Positions 2,984-18,587 of a DNA stretch of 18,587 bases are shown here, piece after piece. Origin of the DNA: an uncultured archaeon (lineage in GTDB: Archaea > Asgardarchaeota > Thorarchaeia > Thorarchaeales > Thorarchaeaceae). Each line of letters begins with the position of its first letter. The stretch's first letter is position 1. The position numbers were made by a program, and so were the translations under genes. The notes beneath the pieces were generated by a model that was given only the letters and a program-made list of their open reading frames with translations, did not search any database and was not told where the DNA came from. The stretch spans positions 1 through 18,587 of the forward strand of contig CAYWJO010000059.1 of the NCBI GenBank assembly GCA_964458565.1. The letters run 5' to 3'.

Positions 2984-4951
2984 ATGGGTGGCGGTGTGAA
3001 AAGAAGTGTATCAGTATCCATTCTCATTCTGATTATGTTCTTTTCATATAGTCAATCTTTGGTGAATGCACAGTTCGTGTTACCCGGATTTTCAAAGTCA
3101 GGACCATATATTGACAAAATCATATACAATGTTATCGGGAGTGATGAAGAGCAAGTACTCGCCATCCAAAATAATGAGATAGATCTCATCGGGGATATGA
3201 TAAATCCAACTTATCTACCCATGTTTGAAGCATCCGAGTTTATAGAGATTTCTAATGTCTTGCGGAATGGTTATGGATATATCGCAATCAATTGTGCAAA
3301 GTATCCCTTCAATATTACAGAATTCCGTCGAGCACTAGCTTTTGCATTAGACAAACAAGCTATTTCAGATGATGTATGGGATGGGCTCTCCGTACCACTG
3401 GATTCTTGCATTCCAATGATTAACCCATTCTCATGTGAAGGTCATCTTGATTACAATTACTATGAAGCGAATGTTGAACATGGAAATCAATTGCTTGATG
3501 ACCTTGGTATGGTAATTGATCCAATATCTGGTTTCAGACTCACACCAAATGGTGATCCATTTGACGTGTTAATTGAATGTGCACTTTCATCCAACATTGC
3601 TATTGAAGTAGGTCAGAAAATTGCTGATGCTCTCACAGCACTGCATGTTGATGCAACATCAGAACCAACTGACTTCTATGAGTATTTTCCAGGGCTTCTA
3701 CCGTGGCATTGTGATTATGATATCGTCTTTTTCGGTGAGAGCTTCACCAACTTCGATGTTGACTGGCTTGCCTATGAGTACTGGTCAGAATACGTTGATG
3801 AGCCATACTATAACTTCCCCAACTGGCAGAATGCAACCTACGACAGCTGGAGGGACCAACTCCTTCACGCAACTGAGTATGAAGATGTCTATGAGGCAGC
3901 CTTCAAGATGCAGGAGATATTTGTTCATGCTTGTCCGATTATCGTGTGTTATGAGAATATACTTCTTTCAGCTTATAGAACTGATAGATTTGATGGCTTC
4001 ATTAACGATGTAAGTAAAGGTGTACCTGGATGGTGGACAAACTATAAGGTTCACCTCAAGCCAGGTCAGACTGGTGCTCCTTGGGGTGGTGAACTCCGCT
4101 GGAGTACTCCCCTCGACCTTGACACATTCAACTTCATGACAAGCAGCTCTGCGTACACCAATAATGTGCTACAGATGATGTACGATTCTTTGATTAGAAT
4201 CGATTCCGAAGGTCTTGATGTTCCTTGGTTGGCAGAATCATGGATTGCTGAAACTCATGACGATAATCCTTCTGTACCGGTGGGAAACACCAGATTCACA
4301 TTCGAATTGATTCAGAATGCTACATGGAGTGATGGTCAACCTATTACTGCTGAAGATGTCGCATTCACACTCAATTACTATCGAGATGCTCCTGGGAACC
4401 CATTTGGAGTAGAGTTGGGTGATATGATGTCAGCCTATACACCTTCTCAGTACACGATGATTGTACAATTCAATACCGAATCTTATTGGCACCTTCATAA
4501 TATTGCATACTTGAACATAATTCCAATGCACGTCTTCCTCGATCTTGGTCTGGAAAATTGGAATGTATGGGATCCACAGCCTCCAGGAATGAGCATGGTT
4601 ACATCTGGATCCTTCAATGTATCAGATTATTTACCAGGCGAATATTGTGAGTTGACGTATAATCAAGACTACTTCTTTGGGCTCTGTAGAAATGAAGGAG
4701 GATGGTCTCCATATACATCCCTCACAACATCCGTTACAAATCCGGGTTTGGGATACTGGAGTACGACCACAACAACAACTATCACAACAACGCATCCTGA
4801 TTACAATTCAAACACTTCTTCACCCTTGATATCAACAACTATACCTTCTGCATCATATCTAAGTACTATCGGTTGGTCAATAACTGCTGGGTCATTGGTC
4901 GTCATTGTTGTATTCAGTATCCTGATATTGAAGGAGCGGAAATCAATCTAA
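2984..4951 (+). CDS. ABC transporter substrate-binding protein, family 5 (oligopeptide/DppA/OppA-like), circularly permuted, with C-terminal Ser/Thr linker and TM anchor
   Basis: Signal peptide. Family-5 motifs PYIDKII...AIQNNEID, INCAKYPFNITEFRRALAFALDK, YDSL...PWLAESW, TWSDGQPITAEDVAFT and SGSF.V..YLPGEY..L..N.DYF. Thr-rich linker and C-terminal TM. The start could alternatively be GTG at 2996. Confidence 0.9.
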   Translation: MGGGVKRSVSVSILILIMFFSYSQSLVNAQFVLPGFSKSGPYIDKIIYNVIGSDEEQVLAIQNNEIDLIGDMINPTYLPMFEASEFIEISNVLRNGYGYIAINCAKYPFNITEFRRALAFALDKQAISDDVWDGLSVPLDSCIPMINPFSCEGHLDYNYYEANVEHGNQLLDDLGMVIDPISGFRLTPNGDPFDVLIECALSSNIAIEVGQKIADALTALHVDATSEPTDFYEYFPGLLPWHCDYDIVFFGESFTNFDVDWLAYEYWSEYVDEPYYNFPNWQNATYDSWRDQLLHATEYEDVYEAAFKMQEIFVHACPIIVCYENILLSAYRTDRFDGFINDVSKGVPGWWTNYKVHLKPGQTGAPWGGELRWSTPLDLDTFNFMTSSSAYTNNVLQMMYDSLIRIDSEGLDVPWLAESWIAETHDDNPSVPVGNTRFTFELIQNATWSDGQPITAEDVAFTLNYYRDAPGNPFGVELGDMMSAYTPSQYTMIVQFNTESYWHLHNIAYLNIIPMHVFLDLGLENWNVWDPQPPGMSMVTSGSFNVSDYLPGEYCELTYNQDYFFGLCRNEGGWSPYTSLTTSVTNPGLGYWSTTTTTTITTTHPDYNSNTSSPLISTTIPSASYLSTIGWSITAGSLVVIVVFSILILKERKSI

Positions 4952-5023: not shown

Positions 5024-7867
5024 TCATCCACCTCGTTTCTTCATTACGATTATGACTATAATGATTAGTCCTGCACCAGCTACAATCAGTATGATTATGA
5101 TTACAGTATTATCAACAGGACCACCTGTTGGTGTACTAGTGGATGTTGAACTAGTCGGTTCTGATGTTGGAGCTATCGAAGGTGTTGTCGTTGTGGGAGA
5201 TGAAACTGTGGTTGTAGTTGAGGGATAGACGCGTATTCTGATGCTATAGTCTCGTATGTTGCCAAAGCTGTCTTCAACAGAAACACTAAGTCCATAATCC
5301 CCAAGTTCCAATATTGTATTATTGGTTAGGAGACCTGTCAGAGTAATGTCAAAATTCGTTGTATCGTTCACATACCAGCCACCAATTCCAGAAGGATCTG
5401 ATGCAGATAGCTGTTGACTGAACGGTTCTCCTGGTCTGAGAAGCTCATCTGTTGGTCCTATAATCCAATCAGGAGCAATATGGTCTTCAATTGTGACATT
5501 GATATAATCATCAGCCCTGTAAGCTACATGATCTCTGACTGTTAATTGAAATTCATAGGTACCTACTGCTAAACCCGAGATGCTCACAAAGATTGGAGAG
5601 CCATCCCAGACCTGAGTATTGATTATCGCACTATCGCGTTTTACCTGATAATCACCAGGTGCGTAACTATGAGCAGTCCAATAGAAGCCACCCTCAGGTC
5701 CTTGAATCTCAAAAACCAAGTTACCGGGATCCTCGATTGTGGGCCGCATGATGTAAGCAATTTCATTCAACCAAAGTTCATAATTGTCAGAGTATGTTGA
5801 ATCATCAGTATCATCATAGTACTGTGAAATACTGAACATATTACAGATAGCCTGACCATTTGCACATTCTATGATTGCAGACATATTTTCTCCTTGACTA
5901 GGTGAAATTCCAGCAAGTGCAGTTGCATTTTCGTATAGCATAACAGAGGTCCAATCTGTTACGTAGTAATTTAGGGCAGAATCGATATAATCAGTTCCGA
6001 AATCGACAGGGCGCTTAAACAGAGTGTGGTAGATTTCCCAGAAATAAACCGGGGGTGGACCATCAGTGATTCGTGCCTCTGGACCTCTTCCATTAAATCC
6101 AAGATAACCCCATAAAGGATAATCTTCAGAAAGGTATCCATCTGGAAAACGAAAAGCAAGGTCTCTCATAAGAAGTTTACCACCATTTTCAAGATGCTCA
6201 ATCAGGACAGGTTGTGTAGGAGTCGGTGATACTGAATTTGCATCATAGATTATCAAATCCCAATCCTGTAAATTCAGACTTAGATTGAAGTACAATGCTC
6301 TAAATGTAAGCATAAAATCTAAACCCAAATCATTCAAAGCCAATGCAATTGGAGACTTGTAATAATTGTAAGGGGTAGCGGGATAATCATGATAGACCAA
6401 AATTCTAGTTTGGGATGTAGTTAACCAATTAGCGACATTCACTAGGAATCGATAATTGTCATCTAATACGATCCATGACTCAAGCAGTGAATTAGCATCA
6501 GGGACAACGATAATTCGCCCTTCTCCTAATTCAGATGCAGCGACAGCAATGTCTGTTGAAGTGTAATTCCAGATTGGGTATGCATTGCCAGATATATTTA
6601 GATTGCAGGATACAGCATAGTAAAGGTCAGTGCAATCCTCAGTTGTTGGATGCATTTCGAAATTGGAAAAAGTGCCGATCTCCGCAGGAAGTGTGTGATT
6701 AAACTGAATTCCATAAGGACTTATGAGTTCATTTAATCGGTAGTTGTCAGGAACACCTACACCATCTCCAACCACAAAGAGCCCACCTCCATTCTGCACC
6801 CAATCTTCAACCGCTTGTATCTCTTGAGTTGTGAAACTCACACCAGGTTGATTGACAACTAACATATCATACGGTGCGAGATTCTCCGCTGTATAGTTAC
6901 CTTCTGTTGAGGGATGTAGTTTGTCAATAGTGAAGGCACGTGAAACCAATGCATCTCTCCATGGTGATAGATAGACCAAATTGGGTGAATCCTCCCAAGG
7001 GTCGGTTGGAACCCAAGGTGTGTGTGAAAGGTCATACAGAATCCTTGCTTTTGGTCGTGGCGCTAACCAATCAACTGCATCATTGATAATCGGTTCAAGA
7101 TCTGGAATATACTCATCATTTAGATCATCACCTATAGTGACTACTCTTCCACCTCTATCACTTGGATCATAGGCAAGGAGGGGTGCTCTCTCACCAAAAA
7201 CAGGTGACTTCCCAACCATGGTTATATCATCAGCAATTGATGTAGTTTGCAATGTTGTATAATTCCACGCAAATGTTCCAAGCGGTAGGTCTATTATATA
7301 GTTTAATGGGTACTCCTGTGCAATTGGATGCCTTGCTGTAATATTTATGTCATCTGAGAAATAACGCCAATATGTGTCGTATCCACCTGAGCCTTCTGAT
7401 TCAGGAGGCAATATTCCGAATGAACAAAGGAAACCAGAAGATCCATCAAAACTGAGCAGCCCCCCACCACCAAGCCAAAAGTCCATAATTCGATACACAA
7501 TCTTCTCACGTGGCTGATTATCTATCAAACAAAATACATCGTAGTCAGCTGTCTTCAATTCGTAATTGTAGATATCATTAACATCCAGTAGAGTTACCTG
7601 ATATCCATATCCTTCAAGGACATCTCTTAGACCAGTTGCATTGTTGTGGGGAATACCTGGATATGTTTGATATACTGGGGGCGTTATATTTGACTCATCA
7701 TATATCGCTACTCGAATGTTTCGAGGCACATATTCCGATTCGGTCATTTTAGATTCTGTAATATCAAGGATTTGTTTCGAATCGTTATCCGAATTTATTG
7801 CTGGAACAAAAAACAGTCCAGAAATAAAAAACACAAAAAGACATAGGACGTGCATTCTTTTCTTCAT
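5024..7867 (-). CDS. Cell-surface protein with three tandem class-I GATase-like domains (middle one DUF4350/GIFT-like), Ig-like stalk, S/T/P linker and C-terminal TM anchor
   Basis: Signal peptide. Three units begin RVAIYD / RILYDLSH / RILVYHD, each with [YW]D..(hydrophobic) and [WL]..GG.L motifs. The middle unit has LAPYDMLVV..P..SFTTQEIQAVEDWVQNGGGLFVVGD...GEGRIIVVPD...N.RFLVNVANWL. Many NxS/T sequons. TM followed by KKRGG. SD GAGGAG upstream. Confidence 0.85.
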   Translation of the reverse strand: MKKRMHVLCLFVFFISGLFFVPAINSDNDSKQILDITESKMTESEYVPRNIRVAIYDESNITPPVYQTYPGIPHNNATGLRDVLEGYGYQVTLLDVNDIYNYELKTADYDVFCLIDNQPREKIVYRIMDFWLGGGGLLSFDGSSGFLCSFGILPPESEGSGGYDTYWRYFSDDINITARHPIAQEYPLNYIIDLPLGTFAWNYTTLQTTSIADDITMVGKSPVFGERAPLLAYDPSDRGGRVVTIGDDLNDEYIPDLEPIINDAVDWLAPRPKARILYDLSHTPWVPTDPWEDSPNLVYLSPWRDALVSRAFTIDKLHPSTEGNYTAENLAPYDMLVVNQPGVSFTTQEIQAVEDWVQNGGGLFVVGDGVGVPDNYRLNELISPYGIQFNHTLPAEIGTFSNFEMHPTTEDCTDLYYAVSCNLNISGNAYPIWNYTSTDIAVAASELGEGRIIVVPDANSLLESWIVLDDNYRFLVNVANWLTTSQTRILVYHDYPATPYNYYKSPIALALNDLGLDFMLTFRALYFNLSLNLQDWDLIIYDANSVSPTPTQPVLIEHLENGGKLLMRDLAFRFPDGYLSEDYPLWGYLGFNGRGPEARITDGPPPVYFWEIYHTLFKRPVDFGTDYIDSALNYYVTDWTSVMLYENATALAGISPSQGENMSAIIECANGQAICNMFSISQYYDDTDDSTYSDNYELWLNEIAYIMRPTIEDPGNLVFEIQGPEGGFYWTAHSYAPGDYQVKRDSAIINTQVWDGSPIFVSISGLAVGTYEFQLTVRDHVAYRADDYINVTIEDHIAPDWIIGPTDELLRPGEPFSQQLSASDPSGIGGWYVNDTTNFDITLTGLLTNNTILELGDYGLSVSVEDSFGNIRDYSIRIRVYPSTTTTVSSPTTTTPSIAPTSEPTSSTSTSTPTGGPVDNTVIIIILIVAGAGLIIIVIIVMKKRGG

Positions 7868-7893
7868 GCTAACTCTCCTCAGCGAAAGGCTAT

Positions 7894-7928
7894 CTTTGGT
7901 ATGAAAGATGCTTTCATTCGTTCCAAAG
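7894..7928. promoter_or_regulatory. Inverted repeat upstream of 5024..7867 (operator or 5'-UTR hairpin)
   Basis: ATGAAAG-atg-CTTTCAT (7901-7917), flanked by CTTTGG(7894-7899)/CCAAAG(7923-7928), 27-61 nt upstream of the start codon. Confidence 0.4.
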
Positions 7929-8058
7929 CGAACTTTGACTATTTAGATTGAGTGCTTTTTTTCTTTGTGGTTCCCATTTTCATTGAAGGTCATTTATTCA
8001 ATCAAGGACATCTCTTTGAGAATAAACGAGATTTGCATATACCGGGACGTACGTTTGT

Positions 8059-11000
8059 TTATTGATTTCTCTTCCTCCTATATGTAAGAACTATAACAAG
8101 ACCCAATGAGATTGGTAGAGCAATCAGAGATACTGATGCTATGATATCCGAAATTTTGGTTTCCAATCCAGCAGTTTCTGCAGGTGGTGGTGGAGACGAG
8201 GGATTTTGTTCATCTGATAATACATACAAATGAGATCCACTATATGCTGCTATATCCATGGTGTCCTTTGAACTCACCCCATCAAAGTATCCAACTACAG
8301 GTTCCCGTATGGAGCCATTTCTCACATAATGCCATAACAAATCTCCAGTATGTCCATCTATGACATTCAGATATTCATAATTGGTAAAGACAAGGTCAGT
8401 ATGTCCATCCTTATTCATATCACCAAATGTACAGGTCGAGTAATATGACCATGGCTCGTACAATGGATAGCTCAATTGAGCATTATACTGCCAAACCATA
8501 GTAGCTGTATCATCGTAGCCGCGTACCCCATAGTATCTGAGGTTCATCACTAGTTCATCAATACCATCATTAAGATACAAATCTGTCGCATAGACCGCTC
8601 GTATGGATGCACCTGGAGCTACGGAGTACATCTGGTCTTCAACAGCAGGATGACAGTCCATAACTCTAACTTGCGATCCCGCTCTGAGCGCAAAATCCTC
8701 GTAGCTATCGCCATTAAAGTAACCTGCATCAATCTCATCTATGTCAGTAAACATATTGTATTCCCATACATATGCACCAGTTGCGCCATTGTAAACACGA
8801 GCTATGTTTTCATCTCCGCCAAAGACGGCATCTAAATATGAAGTACCTCTGAAATGCCCAACAGCAAGTTGATTGTGATCATCTGTTGAATTCACACTTG
8901 ATATGTAACGTAAAGTATCAGCGCTATACCAAGCGAGATAAGCCTGATTCCCAAAGGGTTTTTCGAAGAGGACAACTATCTCATCACCAATGAAGAGACC
9001 ATTGAAGTTGCCTATGTAATAATCAACAACGACAAATCCTGTTGGTGCATAGATATAACCGAGCTTTGCAAGGGATTCGCCCTCGACTAATCCTATTGTG
9101 TTTCCATCAATACGGAATCCAAAATCAGTATTTCCCGAATTATCAATATCGCCAAATCTAACCATATCCATCTGGTCACCTGCAGATATCGGGTGAATCA
9201 GTGTTCCCGTATAGGTATCCCATAAGCCAATTACATCATCACTATATCTCACGAGTACTTCATCAAACCCATCATGATCAAGATCAGATGCCCAAATACC
9301 TTGAATCGTATCGCCAATATCTTCATCCCAATATGGAATATGTGGAAGGTATTGAGGTTCTATTGATGGAGCTGAAAATTCAAGGCCTTCAAAAGCGTCC
9401 AGATAGGATGATGTAGGTTCTATCGGATAGTACCAATATAGTGTAAGAACTGAGTCCTCTCCATCATCATCAAAATCTGCAGCACTCAGAAGACCCAGAT
9501 TATCTTGGATGAAATTAACCCATAGAGGAAGTCCACTTTTACCATCTAGTGTGACCAACTCAGTACTATTCACATTTATTGCAATGTCCATACGTCCAGT
9601 ACCACCAAAATAGCCTGACGTTGCACTAACATGAAATAGATCATATGAGTCAGGTGTGATAATCTCAGCATTGTAGTGCCACTGTGTTCTTAGAGTACCT
9701 ACTTCAACTAGGTATGCTCCACCGTCCTTGGTAAGAATGAAAACTTCTGCAGTATTGTCACCATCAAAATCATCTATGATGAAGTCCATCAATCTCGCAT
9801 TTACTGTAGAGTTATAGATGATAGTTCCTGATACAGCTTCAGCTATTCGAACCATGTTATTATTGCCGAATATAACATCATCAAAGCCATCGAGATTGAA
9901 GTCGTATGCTTCCATCGGCTGCCTACCAAAACTATGACCCACAACATCATTTGGTGACTCATAGAGAAGGGTTCCATCTAAGGGATTGATGATTTTCACT
10001 GCGTAGGTTCCATTTGCATAAGCCACGCCAAGTATCGGGTCATCTGTGAAGTCACCAACAGCCAAACCCCAAATATTCCCTGCGTCTACTGTTTCACTGT
10101 GCCATAGGGCACCTGTGCTGTTGACCACCCAAATCACGCCATCTTCAGTTCCAACGATTATTTCCTTTAGATTATTACCATCAATATCTCCGATATCAAG
10201 GTCCGCGATATCACTACTGAAGACTGTACAATTCCAAAGCAGTTGACCATCCGATGCATTATAGGTCAATAGAAATTGTTCACCCCATTGAACACAGACT
10301 ATCTCTTGTTGACCATCTCCATCTAGATCTGATAACTTGAGGGAGAATAAAGTTGTATCGTGAGTGACATTCCATCCAATGCTTCCATCATCGTCTATCA
10401 TGTAAAGATTCATTCGCGGTGATCCTGTCAATACAGAGAGTACAACCTCATCCTTGGAATCACCATCAACATCTCCACTATCCATAACATAGCCAAATAC
10501 ACCGCCATAGAGATGGAGTGTAGATGTTTTCTCCGATGTTTTGAATCCACTCGCACCATGTGATGGGTCTCTATATTCCCAGATGAATACCTCACCTCGT
10601 TCACATGACACTCCTATTTCTTCCCAGCCATTATTATCAGAATCATACACTGTTAGTCCTGTTATGTCATAGATGAACGGATCAGAGAGATACACTTCCT
10701 CATATGTCATATATCCAGAACCATTAGTAGAATGTACCATTTCATAAACTGCCATCGTTGAATCATAAGAAACAATCACTTCGCGCCGCCCATCAGAATC
10801 CGTATCACCCACGACTAAGTTCGAAACATCACGAAGGTGGTTATTGACCCAGGCATTTGATGGATTGTATCCCCAGAAAATATCAGGATTTGGTGAACCT
10901 ATGAAGTCAAAGATGTTGAAAGCCTGTAAATATAGGAATCCTGTATCTAGATGACCAAGCACACTAGGTGAATAGGTCATAGGCCCCCTGTAGGGCATTC

Positions 11001-14000
11001 CTCCAATATCATAGTAAAAGAGACCAGGGAATCCTGGAAAATCGAGCCTATCCAGATAGTCAGGGTATGTATTGAGGTAGTTCTGATCACTCCACGTTGA
11101 ACCATTATCAACACTAGCAACCATTCCAGTTCGTTTCTCAAATGGGGCGCCTCCTACTTCATATGCCACAATGATTGGATATCCATCACTCCTCAAGTAG
11201 TCTACATCAGGATATATTTCATCATAGTAGGAGTCAGTTGCTCTATGAGGGATGCTATTATTGAAGTTGAAAGAAGCGTTGGTATGTAATGACCAGATAT
11301 CGTAGTCACCCTTGCTTGTCATCGTATTTATTGCAGACATCGCTATTTCGAAGTCGCCATTTGGCATCCGGATAATAGATGCCTTTTGTATATCGAAGTA
11401 ATCCCAACCTGGAAATGTTAGGAGATATGGACCACTTCTCTCAGAGAGGTCCTCTTTCATGAGGTAATAATATGCCTCTGAGGTGTCGATATCATTTTTA
11501 ACGTACATAATTCCAATGTGTGTAGTATTGTAAGCGAACACCTGTGGATGATTTCTACTACCAGAACTTTCAGTGTTGTTCCTCACCCATACAGGGTCAC
11601 TAAACCACATATCACCAGTACCCAGTCGAGAAATCCAAAAGTCATTCTGACCCCAATCTCGTTCTGCTTTCCATGTTAGCCAAATTGCATTATCGTTACT
11701 AGTTATTGATGGTTGTGCTTCAGATACAACTGTGACATCATTATAATCTCCAGATACCGTTAGACTACTGAATGGAATTAATGGTAATGAGCTGACTTGA
11801 AGCGATGTTGTGTTAATGCCCTTCATATAGAGCTGCTCATTATTCACTAGAACCATTAGGGCTACTTCACTCTGGGCACCAATAGAATAAGTCATATCAT
11901 TAGCACAACGATTAGTAAAAGTCAACGTATCAATTCCGGGATATAGAATAGATTCAAGTTCAATATTCGGATAGCTTGGTGAAGATGTGACTTTTGCCGC
12001 ATTGATGTAGTCCTCTGCAAGGTTGTCCCATTCCATGATATCGAATCCCTTCGTATGACCTATTATGATTTCTAGATTCGAATCATAATCTTGGTCGTCT
12101 ATCAGAACTACACTCACAGGATTCAGTGTGACAATATCAGGTGGTGCTTCCCATACCTTCTGGAAGGTTCCTCCCCAACACTCATAGATGTATACAAATC
12201 CATCCTGCCTGCTAACTCTAGTATCATAGGTCCCACCTAGTATTATCTCAGGGTGACTATCTCTATCTGTATCTCCAACTGCTAGACTCTTGATTTCAGC
12301 TCCCTGATATGGGTCTGCTCCCTCAGGATTTCCAAGGAGATAGTAACGGCCATCTACATCGCCAGTTCTTCCAAAGTAGTCATTCAGCTCCAGTCCATCG
12401 AAGGAGTCTACTTCGATATTAAAGACGAATAGAAACGGTCCTACGGCTACCACAAGATCTCTCCGACCATCACTGTCCATATCAATACCAGCCTCTAGAG
12501 CAGTTATCTCTGTCACTTCCTCCCACGCATTTGATTCCTCATTCAGATATCCAAGGTCTCTGAGGTCAAAAGAGTAAGCGAGTTGTATTGTGTCATCGAT
12601 TCCTGTCGCTTCATAGATGTAAATCTGTAAATCACTAGCAATAATTAACTCAGCTAAACCGTCCTGATCAAGATCTGTACCAGTCAAAAGATGCTTTGCG
12701 TGGTCCCAAATCCGTCTGTTGAATTCACCTGAGATACCTTCAAGCTGTTGGTAGGCATACGGACTGGAGTCACTGACTTCGGTGTGATTAAGATCATAGG
12801 ACCGGAACATCCTCTTATAGGTCGCATTTGAGAGGTGTTCGAAAGCATATACATTGTTATCGTAGTCACCGACAATGATTTCACCCCTTCCATCACCATC
12901 TAGGTCTCCGGATGATATTGTCAGAGTCCAGTTTTCTAAATCAAAATCTGTATTCCATGATTCATGCATATGATATCCCAGATTCCTGAAGGATTCACCC
13001 TTCATTAGGCAGAAGTCTAATCTTAATACTCGTGGATAAGTCGCTACCAGAAAAGTATCAATCGCATCATAGTGAGAGAGTGCCCATCTAAGAGTTCCAG
13101 TATCTTCATGATAGGCAGCAAGTGAGAAATCTCCAGTCAATTCAATATCTTCACTCTCTGCAATATTTTGGAGCGTATATCCACCGGTATTGGGAACAAG
13201 TCTGATGTCTTTTAGCTTCAACAGAGTCATTGCTGTATCAGTATCAGGATTATTGAAGATGCGTCGATCTTCTTTCCAGATTGGTAAACCTGAAGTGCCC
13301 TTGTTTAGGAAACATGTAGCACCATACTTATTATCATAGTTTAGAATTAGGTCCAAGATTCCATCGCCGTTGATATCTACGAATTGTGGTTGTCCCCAGA
13401 GGACACTTCCAGTATTCAGATTGATCTCGTCGAAATATCCCGTTTCAAGCTGAAATAGCTGTGCATCTGTTTCACTGAACATATTCTTAGCTAAGTATAC
13501 AAAACCATTAGATAATACCATGTCTAGGTCTCCATCATTATCATAGTCAGCAAAACTCACTCTAGGAGTAGCTTGCGACATTGAGAGTAGTTGAGTAATC
13601 TCCCCAGTCCAGTCAAAGGATCTGATGGAACCAAGCTCCATGAAGTCTTCAAACGGAGTGTTGCGATAATAGAATATGAGGTTAGACCTACTACTCCATG
13701 CTGTTGGGTCTGCATATCTTCCATCTGGACTATAGCCACCAACGGCGACCATTGGCATTAGACCTTGAGGAGTTTCTGGCCAGAGATTCACAATTTCCGC
13801 AGATGTAAAGTCATGTGCTGAGAGTGTTGCTGACAACCTCCCAGTCATGGAGAAATCAGTTTCTCCTGAAACATCAAGAGCAGTTACAATGCTAGCATCG
13901 GTTCCTACTAGATAATATGGTTGACCATTTCCACCTTTTGATACTGGACTGGGAACACCATAAGACCATGAGTTGTATCCTCCGATATGGGGATTTATGT

Positions 14001-18587: not shown

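Follow-up and report, generated by a model that had tools for sequence, protein, structure and literature searches.

What surface machinery is encoded on an archaeal contig where three co-oriented genes in a row specify large acidic proteins, and which of these genes belong together? The window analysed here is the whole of contig C59, 18,587 nt in length, from a metagenome-assembled genome (MAG) of 3.73 Mb that comprises 93 contigs and is 93% complete. Its host is an Asgard archaeon, as the first-pass annotation of this DNA had supposed, and is of Thorarchaeota type. That annotation read the three genes, termed A, B and C in the following (Table 1), as coding for a thrombospondin type-3 (TSP3)-like repeat protein, a propeller protein and a GIFT-like protein, all acidic and anchored at the C terminus. 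The coordinates, helices and composition are all borne out. Hydropathy analysis gives a single C-terminal hydrophobic helix in each protein and an N-terminal signal-like segment in B and C, and Asp plus Glu make up 20% (A), 16% (B) and 13% (C) of the residues against about 5% for Lys plus Arg. Pfam agrees with the domain calls, giving TSP3_bac for A, FG-GAP families for B and, marginally, IFT52_GIFT and ABC_transp_aux for C. The A/B cassette proved to be real and conserved, with very few occurrences outside Asgard archaea. The best explanation as a whole, in which we place about even confidence, is that A and B are the products of a translationally coupled cassette, specific to Asgard archaea, that encodes giant surface proteins anchored in the membrane.

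Gene A lies directly upstream of B on the same strand, or is fused to it in frame, in 36 of 40 loci around B homologs. The remaining four consist of two Heimdall-type loci with the reversed order and two loci cut off by the contig end ahead of any upstream gene. A separate retrieval gave 80 named loci, of which 73 were informative and 69 carry A directly upstream of B. The four exceptions have no A on the upstream side, which is the side inspected; two of them are the same reversed-order Heimdall-type loci. The first-pass annotation had stated that a pair not kept together in related genomes would speak against its proposal, and the pair is indeed conserved. No published description of the A/B pair was found, and none of the papers searched combines Asgard archaea with FG-GAP, in agreement with the earlier remark that no characterised system of this arrangement was known.

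Homologs of B at E ≤ 1e-10 occur in 120 of 400 genomes of the window's phylum, and strong matches (E < 1e-40) in about 95 of the same 400. They are concentrated in the window's own family (about 50 of 85 genomes), and one family of 135 genomes in the same phylum contains no strong match. The best 80 loci obtained from 185,579 species are all archaeal and nearly all bear Asgard names, with the named loci spanning Thor-, Loki- (including L. ossiferum), Heimdall-, Hod-, Hermod- and Njord-type records. Four named loci carry other labels, and two of these belong to the window's phylum. The other two are MAGs labelled Bathyarchaeota, L083 (UBA233) and L118 (BA_19), which hold an A/B pair; no other genome among the 301 sampled from their phylum does so, and the two cases may stem from contaminated bins or from a rare transfer. 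Variants of the arrangement were also seen. One Thorarchaeota locus (L021, G325:C621:1-20000) has A followed by two tandem B genes of 2690 aa and 2337 aa. In Heimdall-type genomes (L043/L044 of the G067 'Heimdallarchaeota bin6' chromosome; L038 of G056), a second variant with the order reversed places an A'-like gene after B', and in G067 it forms a cluster of five genes, namely A, B, a ~940-aa gene whose counterpart in G075 has a PPC domain, B' and A'.

The host genome contains three paralogous A/B pairs, located in the window, on contig C62 and on contig C6. The C62 pair shares 58% and 41% identity with the window pair. The A gene of the third pair probably begins on C40, where an A-type N-terminus runs off the contig end, and continues on C6, which holds an A-type tail. 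Trees were built for A (last 870 aa) and for B from 36 loci. Their major clades match, with a Mantel r of 0.91 that was reached by 0 of 2000 permutations, and two pairs of the host genome, likewise those of G387, land in corresponding clades of both trees. We saw no case in these 36-locus trees of A and B exchanging partners between clades. The mirrored topologies imply that the unit was duplicated and transferred whole. Fused A-B forms are present in two separate clades and retain the transmembrane (TM) helix of A, the basic loop and the N-terminal hydrophobic segment of B, so that the fused forms make a TM hairpin with both ectodomains on the same side, outside. A and B are thus inherited, duplicated and occasionally fused as one unit. 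In both trees, Loki-type pairs (L. ossiferum, Harpocratesius, Promethearchaeum sp.; L028-L030) nest within Thorarchaeota clades by the G387/G388 copies (L013/L014), which suggests whole-pair transfer between classes or old paralogy with losses.

The junction of the two genes is equally close. The stop codon of A and the start codon of B are separated by one base, TAG(15961-15959)-A(15958)-ATG(15957-15955), and the Shine-Dalgarno (SD) sequence GAGGAGGGAGGAG at 15976-15964 lies inside the last codons of A, with its GGAGG core 8 nt ahead of the ATG of B. Both the one-base gap and the SD within the upstream gene had been noted in the first pass. Paralogous pairs of the host have comparable junctions, TAG-T-GTG on C62 and an ATGA overlap on C6, and most A orthologs terminate in a conserved GG[A/E], which fits an SD for B embedded in the last codons of A. 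With the SD in this position, ribosomes would carry on from A into B, and both proteins would be co-made and inserted side by side. We consider it likely that A/B is a functional unit at the cell surface.

Only the 3' part of gene A is present in the window, since the window is an entire contig and the 5' end is missing for assembly reasons. A matches TSP3_bac only (PF18884; 2.7e-09 and 1.1e-12). In the window part, about 600 aa of TSP3-type Ca-binding repeats are followed by a pair of small beta-rich domains (aa ~600-770); the TM helix spans aa 777-799, and a 68-aa tail rich in Lys, Ser, Thr and Pro leads up to the TAG stop. The repeat region has invariant Asp/Glu columns across Asgard classes. 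A has 23 DxDxD motifs, whereas shuffled sequences averaged 2.3 and never exceeded 8; for the 13 Dx[DN]x[DN]G motifs of B, shuffling gave an average of 0.6 and at most 3. The Ca-type Asp repeats that had been described for the first two proteins are therefore far above expectation. The same motif count gave 0 for C.

We infer that the missing 5' part of A lies at the end of contig C38 (Table 1), which would complete the truncated gene from an upstream contig as the first-pass annotation had envisaged. The A ortholog of G363 is 84% identical to the C38 piece up to residue 1097 and 72% identical to the window piece from residue 1122, and this break in the alignment indicates that about 24 codons of TSP3 repeats are unassembled between C38 and C59. 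Contig C40 was also considered as the source of the 5' part and was rejected, as it overlaps the gene at homologous positions with just 46% identity. The whole A would be about 2230 aa long, starting with a signal peptide and a ~1150-aa head and continuing with the TSP3 array, the two beta-rich domains, the TM helix and the tail. The head gave no Pfam match (as a whole at E up to 0.01, in three pieces at E up to 1) and no PDB sequence match. It includes an inner, strongly hydrophobic stretch at the TM threshold (P0004 aa ~1090-1190, L128), though this lies in the predicted ectodomain, and the fused forms L022/L023 have the same kind of stretch at aa 897-915. The long Lys-rich tail of A is found in Thor lineages only and shrinks to 7-9 aa in Loki copies, for which reason we rejected a cytoplasmic link through this tail. 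The first-pass annotation had suggested looking upstream for further operon members; the genes found there on C38, DUF362 and GNAT, look unrelated.

B begins with a signal-like segment, continues with several FG-GAP propellers that carry insert domains, and ends in a TM helix at aa 2605-2623, behind which nine residues, LTYRRKRNQ, form a basic tail; the tails of its orthologs are always short and basic. Its Pfam matches are FG-GAP_3 (1.9e-34), FG-GAP (5.4e-22), BBS7, BBS2 and Itfg2, with the FG-GAP matches scattered over aa 200-2000. The first propeller is the best-conserved part of B, and aa 1000-1100 are strongly conserved as well. The membrane-proximal parts of both A and B are poorly conserved. 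The third B paralog of the host (C6, L005:528-6404, 1958 aa) has kept the first FG-GAP propeller and has NHL-repeat/SGL-type propellers in place of the later FG-GAP ones.

Two insert regions of B were chosen for folding with alignments for having no informative Pfam match. At E up to 1, Pfam gave nothing for aa 380-700 and just a sub-threshold FG-GAP_3 match, which belongs to the next propeller, for aa 1300-1800; PDB sequence searches of B 1300-1800 and B 380-700 gave no match. The AlphaFold2 model of aa 380-565 has a predicted local distance difference test (pLDDT) score of 82.6 and middling structural matches (Foldseek E 2e-4 to 1e-3; VIA Z 8.2-10.3 over 117-135 residues), which would make this insert a galactose-binding-like, discoidin/CBM32-type module. 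For aa 1320-1770 the model reached a pLDDT of 87 and a predicted template modelling (pTM) score of 0.86. The six-bladed fold of insert 2 aligned to Neu2, GH93 and bacterial sialidases over 311-320 residues with VIA Z 27-28 and a root-mean-square deviation of 3.3-3.6 A, and its sequence is 6-10% identical to known enzymes. It contains a lone Asp-box, SVDNGSTW, at aa 1615. GH33 sialidases use a catalytic Arg triad, a Tyr/Glu nucleophile pair and an acid/base Asp in the pocket. In insert 2, charged and aromatic residues conserved in the Thor/Loki subset are R1350, E1413, D1551, D1553, Y1599, E1600 and R1637, and no Arg is invariant over all 33 sequences.

A complex of the two proteins was modelled by folding aa 1-600 of A, the TSP3 region, together with aa 60-420 of B, the first propeller, using our own alignments and three controls. 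The pair gave ipSAE scores of 0.44, 0.47 and 0.44 and the best control 0.00; the partner had a pLDDT of 68, and at least 67% of contacts were common to the runs. We know of no solved complex of the TSP3-region/FG-GAP-propeller kind. We put direct binding of A and B at about even odds, which the modelling raised modestly. The Ca2+-stiffened TSP3 array of A would touch the conserved first propeller of B near the membrane, and the heteromer would present the lectin-like modules of B outward, where they could hold glycans on partner cells, particles or substrata. The most likely role would be that of a two-protein, Ca-dependent, glycan-binding adhesion or contact module. Taken by itself, adhesion or glycan binding as the role of A/B is a tentative proposal, short of an even chance. 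L. ossiferum, which carries an A/B pair, crawls while adhered to surfaces; its adhesion molecules are unidentified and its whole proteome has been deposited (PMC13716822, 2026). In strain B-35 the two orthologs lie at about 4.811-4.825 Mb of CP104013.1 (L058:1761-7997 and 8001-15890); the proteome deposit is PXD074767, and a co-IP set is available as PXD068820. A more specific version, unlikely though conceivable, would make the A/B heteromer a Ca2+-dependent adhesion receptor of Asgard archaea, by which cells such as those of L. ossiferum could grip surfaces and partner cells while crawling, with lectin-like modules on the multi-propeller subunit held by the Ca-stiffened TSP3 subunit.

Several points weigh against the favoured explanation as a whole. 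Mirrored trees do not show binding, because adjacent genes share their history; together with the fusions they speak for co-inheritance and a common topology. The physical complex proposed in the first pass is weakly supported, by the fold test. In the calibration of that test, 58 of the 80 solved complexes and 2 of the 110 mismatched pairs came up to the mark, a calibration that holds only roughly here because our own alignments were used; scores of at most 0.60 were obtained by 7 of the 80 solved complexes and by both passing mismatches. According to the tool, most passes as weak as this one are false, except where the pairing was probable to begin with. The surface location rests on hydropathy, sequons and domain types. 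Likeness of fold alone is not proof of glycan binding, and the discoidin-like match is middling. The tiny cytoplasmic tails of the Loki copies (7-9 aa) argue against integrin-like signalling or a cytoskeletal link. Finally, strong matches in merely ~24% of the sampled phylum genomes, and in none of the 135-genome family, make for a patchy distribution, so that A/B is not a universal Asgard structure.

The same distribution bears on a rather unlikely alternative, in which A/B would be no adhesin but part of a structural coat, an irregular protein layer that serves as S-layer substitute or glycocalyx scaffold and protects or shapes wall-less cells. Giant, repeat-rich, Ca-stabilised and membrane-anchored proteins would suit such a coat, cultured Asgard cells are wall-less and decorated with unidentified proteins (PMC13716822; 10.1101/2025.07.22.663070), and several paralogous pairs can be found in one genome. 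A coat protein, however, would be expected to be nearly universal in its lineage, when strong matches are present in about a quarter of the sampled phylum genomes, and the lectin-like inserts suit ligand binding more than lattice building. If A and B were instead co-transcribed but independent surface proteins, their tight junction would reflect expression economy. This is unlikely: in its favour, the complex fold test gave just weak support and conservation is poor near the membrane in A and B alike, but fusions arose independently with the topology kept, order and junction are invariant across Asgard classes, and no exchange of partners between clades was seen.

The strong fold match of insert 2 to GH33/GH93 enzymes (Z 27-28), the CBM32-like module in the same protein and the charged and aromatic residues conserved in the Thor/Loki subset could be taken to mean that A/B is an extracellular glycan-processing machine, with the sialidase-fold propeller as a glycosidase, the discoidin-like module as a carbohydrate-binding module and A as a stalk. 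We regard this as distinctly unlikely, since the low identity to enzymes is accompanied by the lack of any Pfam or PDB sequence match, no Arg is invariant over the 33 sequences, and there is a single Asp-box. Delivery of polymorphic toxins is an extremely improbable role. It is prompted by the arCOG labels (arCOG10338) borne by the L. ossiferum orthogroup with TSP3_bac and FG-GAP_3 (PMC9834061 supplement), yet both proteins finish in a TM helix and a short basic tail with no variable toxin domain, and what follows them are genes of housekeeping or surface type, unrelated to the pair and not of immunity type.

Among known systems, A/B resembles integrin alpha/beta in its FG-GAP propellers with Ca loops, its two type-I membrane subunits with short tails and the proposed head-to-head contact. 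Where integrin alpha has one N-terminal seven-bladed propeller followed by Ig-like thigh and calf legs, B has no such legs but a series of propellers, into which the sialidase-fold and discoidin-like domains are inserted, and it lacks a GFFKR-type motif in its own tail and in those of its orthologs. In contrast to integrin beta, neither part of A has a VWA/beta-I (MIDAS) domain in Pfam searches. The patchy spread within Asgard archaea likewise does not imply homology with integrins. A shares type-3 Ca-binding repeats with the thrombospondin family, though it matches the bacterial model PF18884 only, eukaryotic TSP_3 not being listed at E ≤ 0.01, and no TSP_C, EGF-repeat or coiled-coil Pfam match was found in A (E ≤ 0.01 on the tail and whole head, E up to 1 on pieces). 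Bacterial TSP3-repeat surface proteins (PF18884) have the same DxDxDG..D type of Ca-binding repeat and a cell-surface location, whereas in A an unmatched head of ~1150 aa and a TM anchor at the C terminus are combined with an FG-GAP gene as obligatory partner. The likeness of B aa 1328-1708 to GH33 sialidases and GH93 arabinanases is one of a six-bladed fold with one Asp-box, known from the predicted structure; the domain of B differs in being lodged between FG-GAP propellers in a membrane-anchored giant. The receptor/matrix analogy with eukaryotes drawn in the first pass is thus not upheld, as the repeats belong to the TSP3 type of bacteria and the features that define integrins are missing. 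Its own caveat that eukaryotic homology is not implied was well placed, the repeats being ordinary prokaryotic types.

Cultured Asgard cells have no cell wall, carry unidentified surface proteins and make contact with partner cells (PMC13716822). Other large surface proteins of Asgard archaea, including a 'badge' protein and WD40 proteins, have been described in a 2025 preprint (10.1101/2025.07.22.663070), and two papers that cite Liu et al. 2021 credit that work with 'integrin repeats' in Asgard archaea. A/B is a concrete, testable candidate for the molecules of adhesion, contact or the surface in these organisms. Built of ordinary prokaryotic repeat domains, it says nothing direct on the origin of integrins. 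The details new here are the co-phylogeny of A and B, the folds of the B inserts, and the weakly supportive fold result for the TSP3 region and the first propeller. Particular to the host genome are the three paralogous pairs, the split of A over two contigs and a lineage-specific GIFT-like neighbour after B.

Table 1 Features of the A/B cassette and of neighbouring sequence; positions refer to the window unless another contig is named.
Feature	Position	Strand	Product or remark
Gene A, 3' part	15959-18586 (feature 15959..18587)	minus	875 aa, P0001; open reading frame open at contig end
TSP3 repeat region of A	16787..18586	minus	aa 1-600; best-conserved part of A, 47-79% identity across Asgard classes
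Gene A, putative 5' part	C38 end, L128:14298-18359		P0004; N-terminal 1354 codons
Coupling junction of A and B	15955..15976	minus	SD in last codons of A, then TAG, one base, ATG of B
Gene B	8059-15957	minus	2632 aa, P0002
First FG-GAP propeller of B	14818..15705	minus	aa ~85-380; 61-68% column identity
B insert 1, predicted discoidin/CBM32/F-lectin-type jelly roll	14263..14820	minus	aa ~380-565
B insert 2, predicted six-bladed sialidase/GH93-fold propeller	10834..11976	minus	aa ~1328-1708
B/C spacer	7868-8058	minus	191 nt
Gene C, GIFT-like	5024-7867	minus	947 aa, P0003

Besides A, B and C, the window contains genes with Pfam matches to DUF6935, PadR and SBP_bac_5. Gene C encodes a signal segment, GIFT/ThuA/DUF4350-like domains, Ig/PKD-like domains, a Ser/Thr/Pro linker and a TM helix. 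Its scores of 35.6 for ABC_transp_aux (cut-off 34.7) and 27.6 for IFT52_GIFT (cut-off 27.2) are marginal, as is a DUF4350 match, and its Atlas neighbours are consistent with them. Its likeness to GldG/IFT52 and DUF4350/ThuA-like proteins consists of these Pfam matches barely above the gathering cut-offs. In contrast to GldG, C is a surface protein that spans the membrane once and carries Ig/PKD-like domains, and there are no ABC transporter genes, neither ATPase nor permease, in the window. The gap that had been described ahead of the third gene is present (Table 1); reading its sequence, we found a T-rich stretch past the stop of B, A/T-rich boxes and GAGGAG ahead of the ATG of C.

Co-oriented with B, 191 nt downstream of it and likewise a membrane-anchored surface protein, C could be thought to work with A and B in a three-gene system, and the first-pass annotation had counted it as a member. 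This is very improbable, as what follows B varies from locus to locus. In the three pairs of the host it is the GIFT-like gene (window), a beta-helix/NosD gene (C62) and the gene of an fn3-anchored protein (C6), and the closest orthologous locus, whose B is 83% identical, has MTHFR and MtrH genes downstream and no C. In other genomes B is followed by genes for AAA ATPase, PAS kinase, penicillin amidase, LVIVD, FtsX, VWA, PPC and NosD proteins. The C family is multi-copy. Of the 86 family genomes, 70 contain it, a single genome having as many as 11 matches and the copies often standing in tandem arrays, and none of its members adjoins a B match in those 86 genomes. The best C homolog (57% identity) sits in a genome without a B match, and a C paralog of the host on C23 (L007:6672-9491) lies upstream of an SBP_bac_3/permease/ABC_tran importer operon. 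Judged from these genomic settings, C is evidently an unrelated surface protein of a multi-copy family and a chance neighbour of A/B here.

Both GIFT/ThuA-like copies of the host adjoin solute-binding protein genes, which in the window is the convergent SBP_bac_5 gene at 2984-4951. Relatives of the host have tandem arrays of up to four C-type copies (G387:C75).

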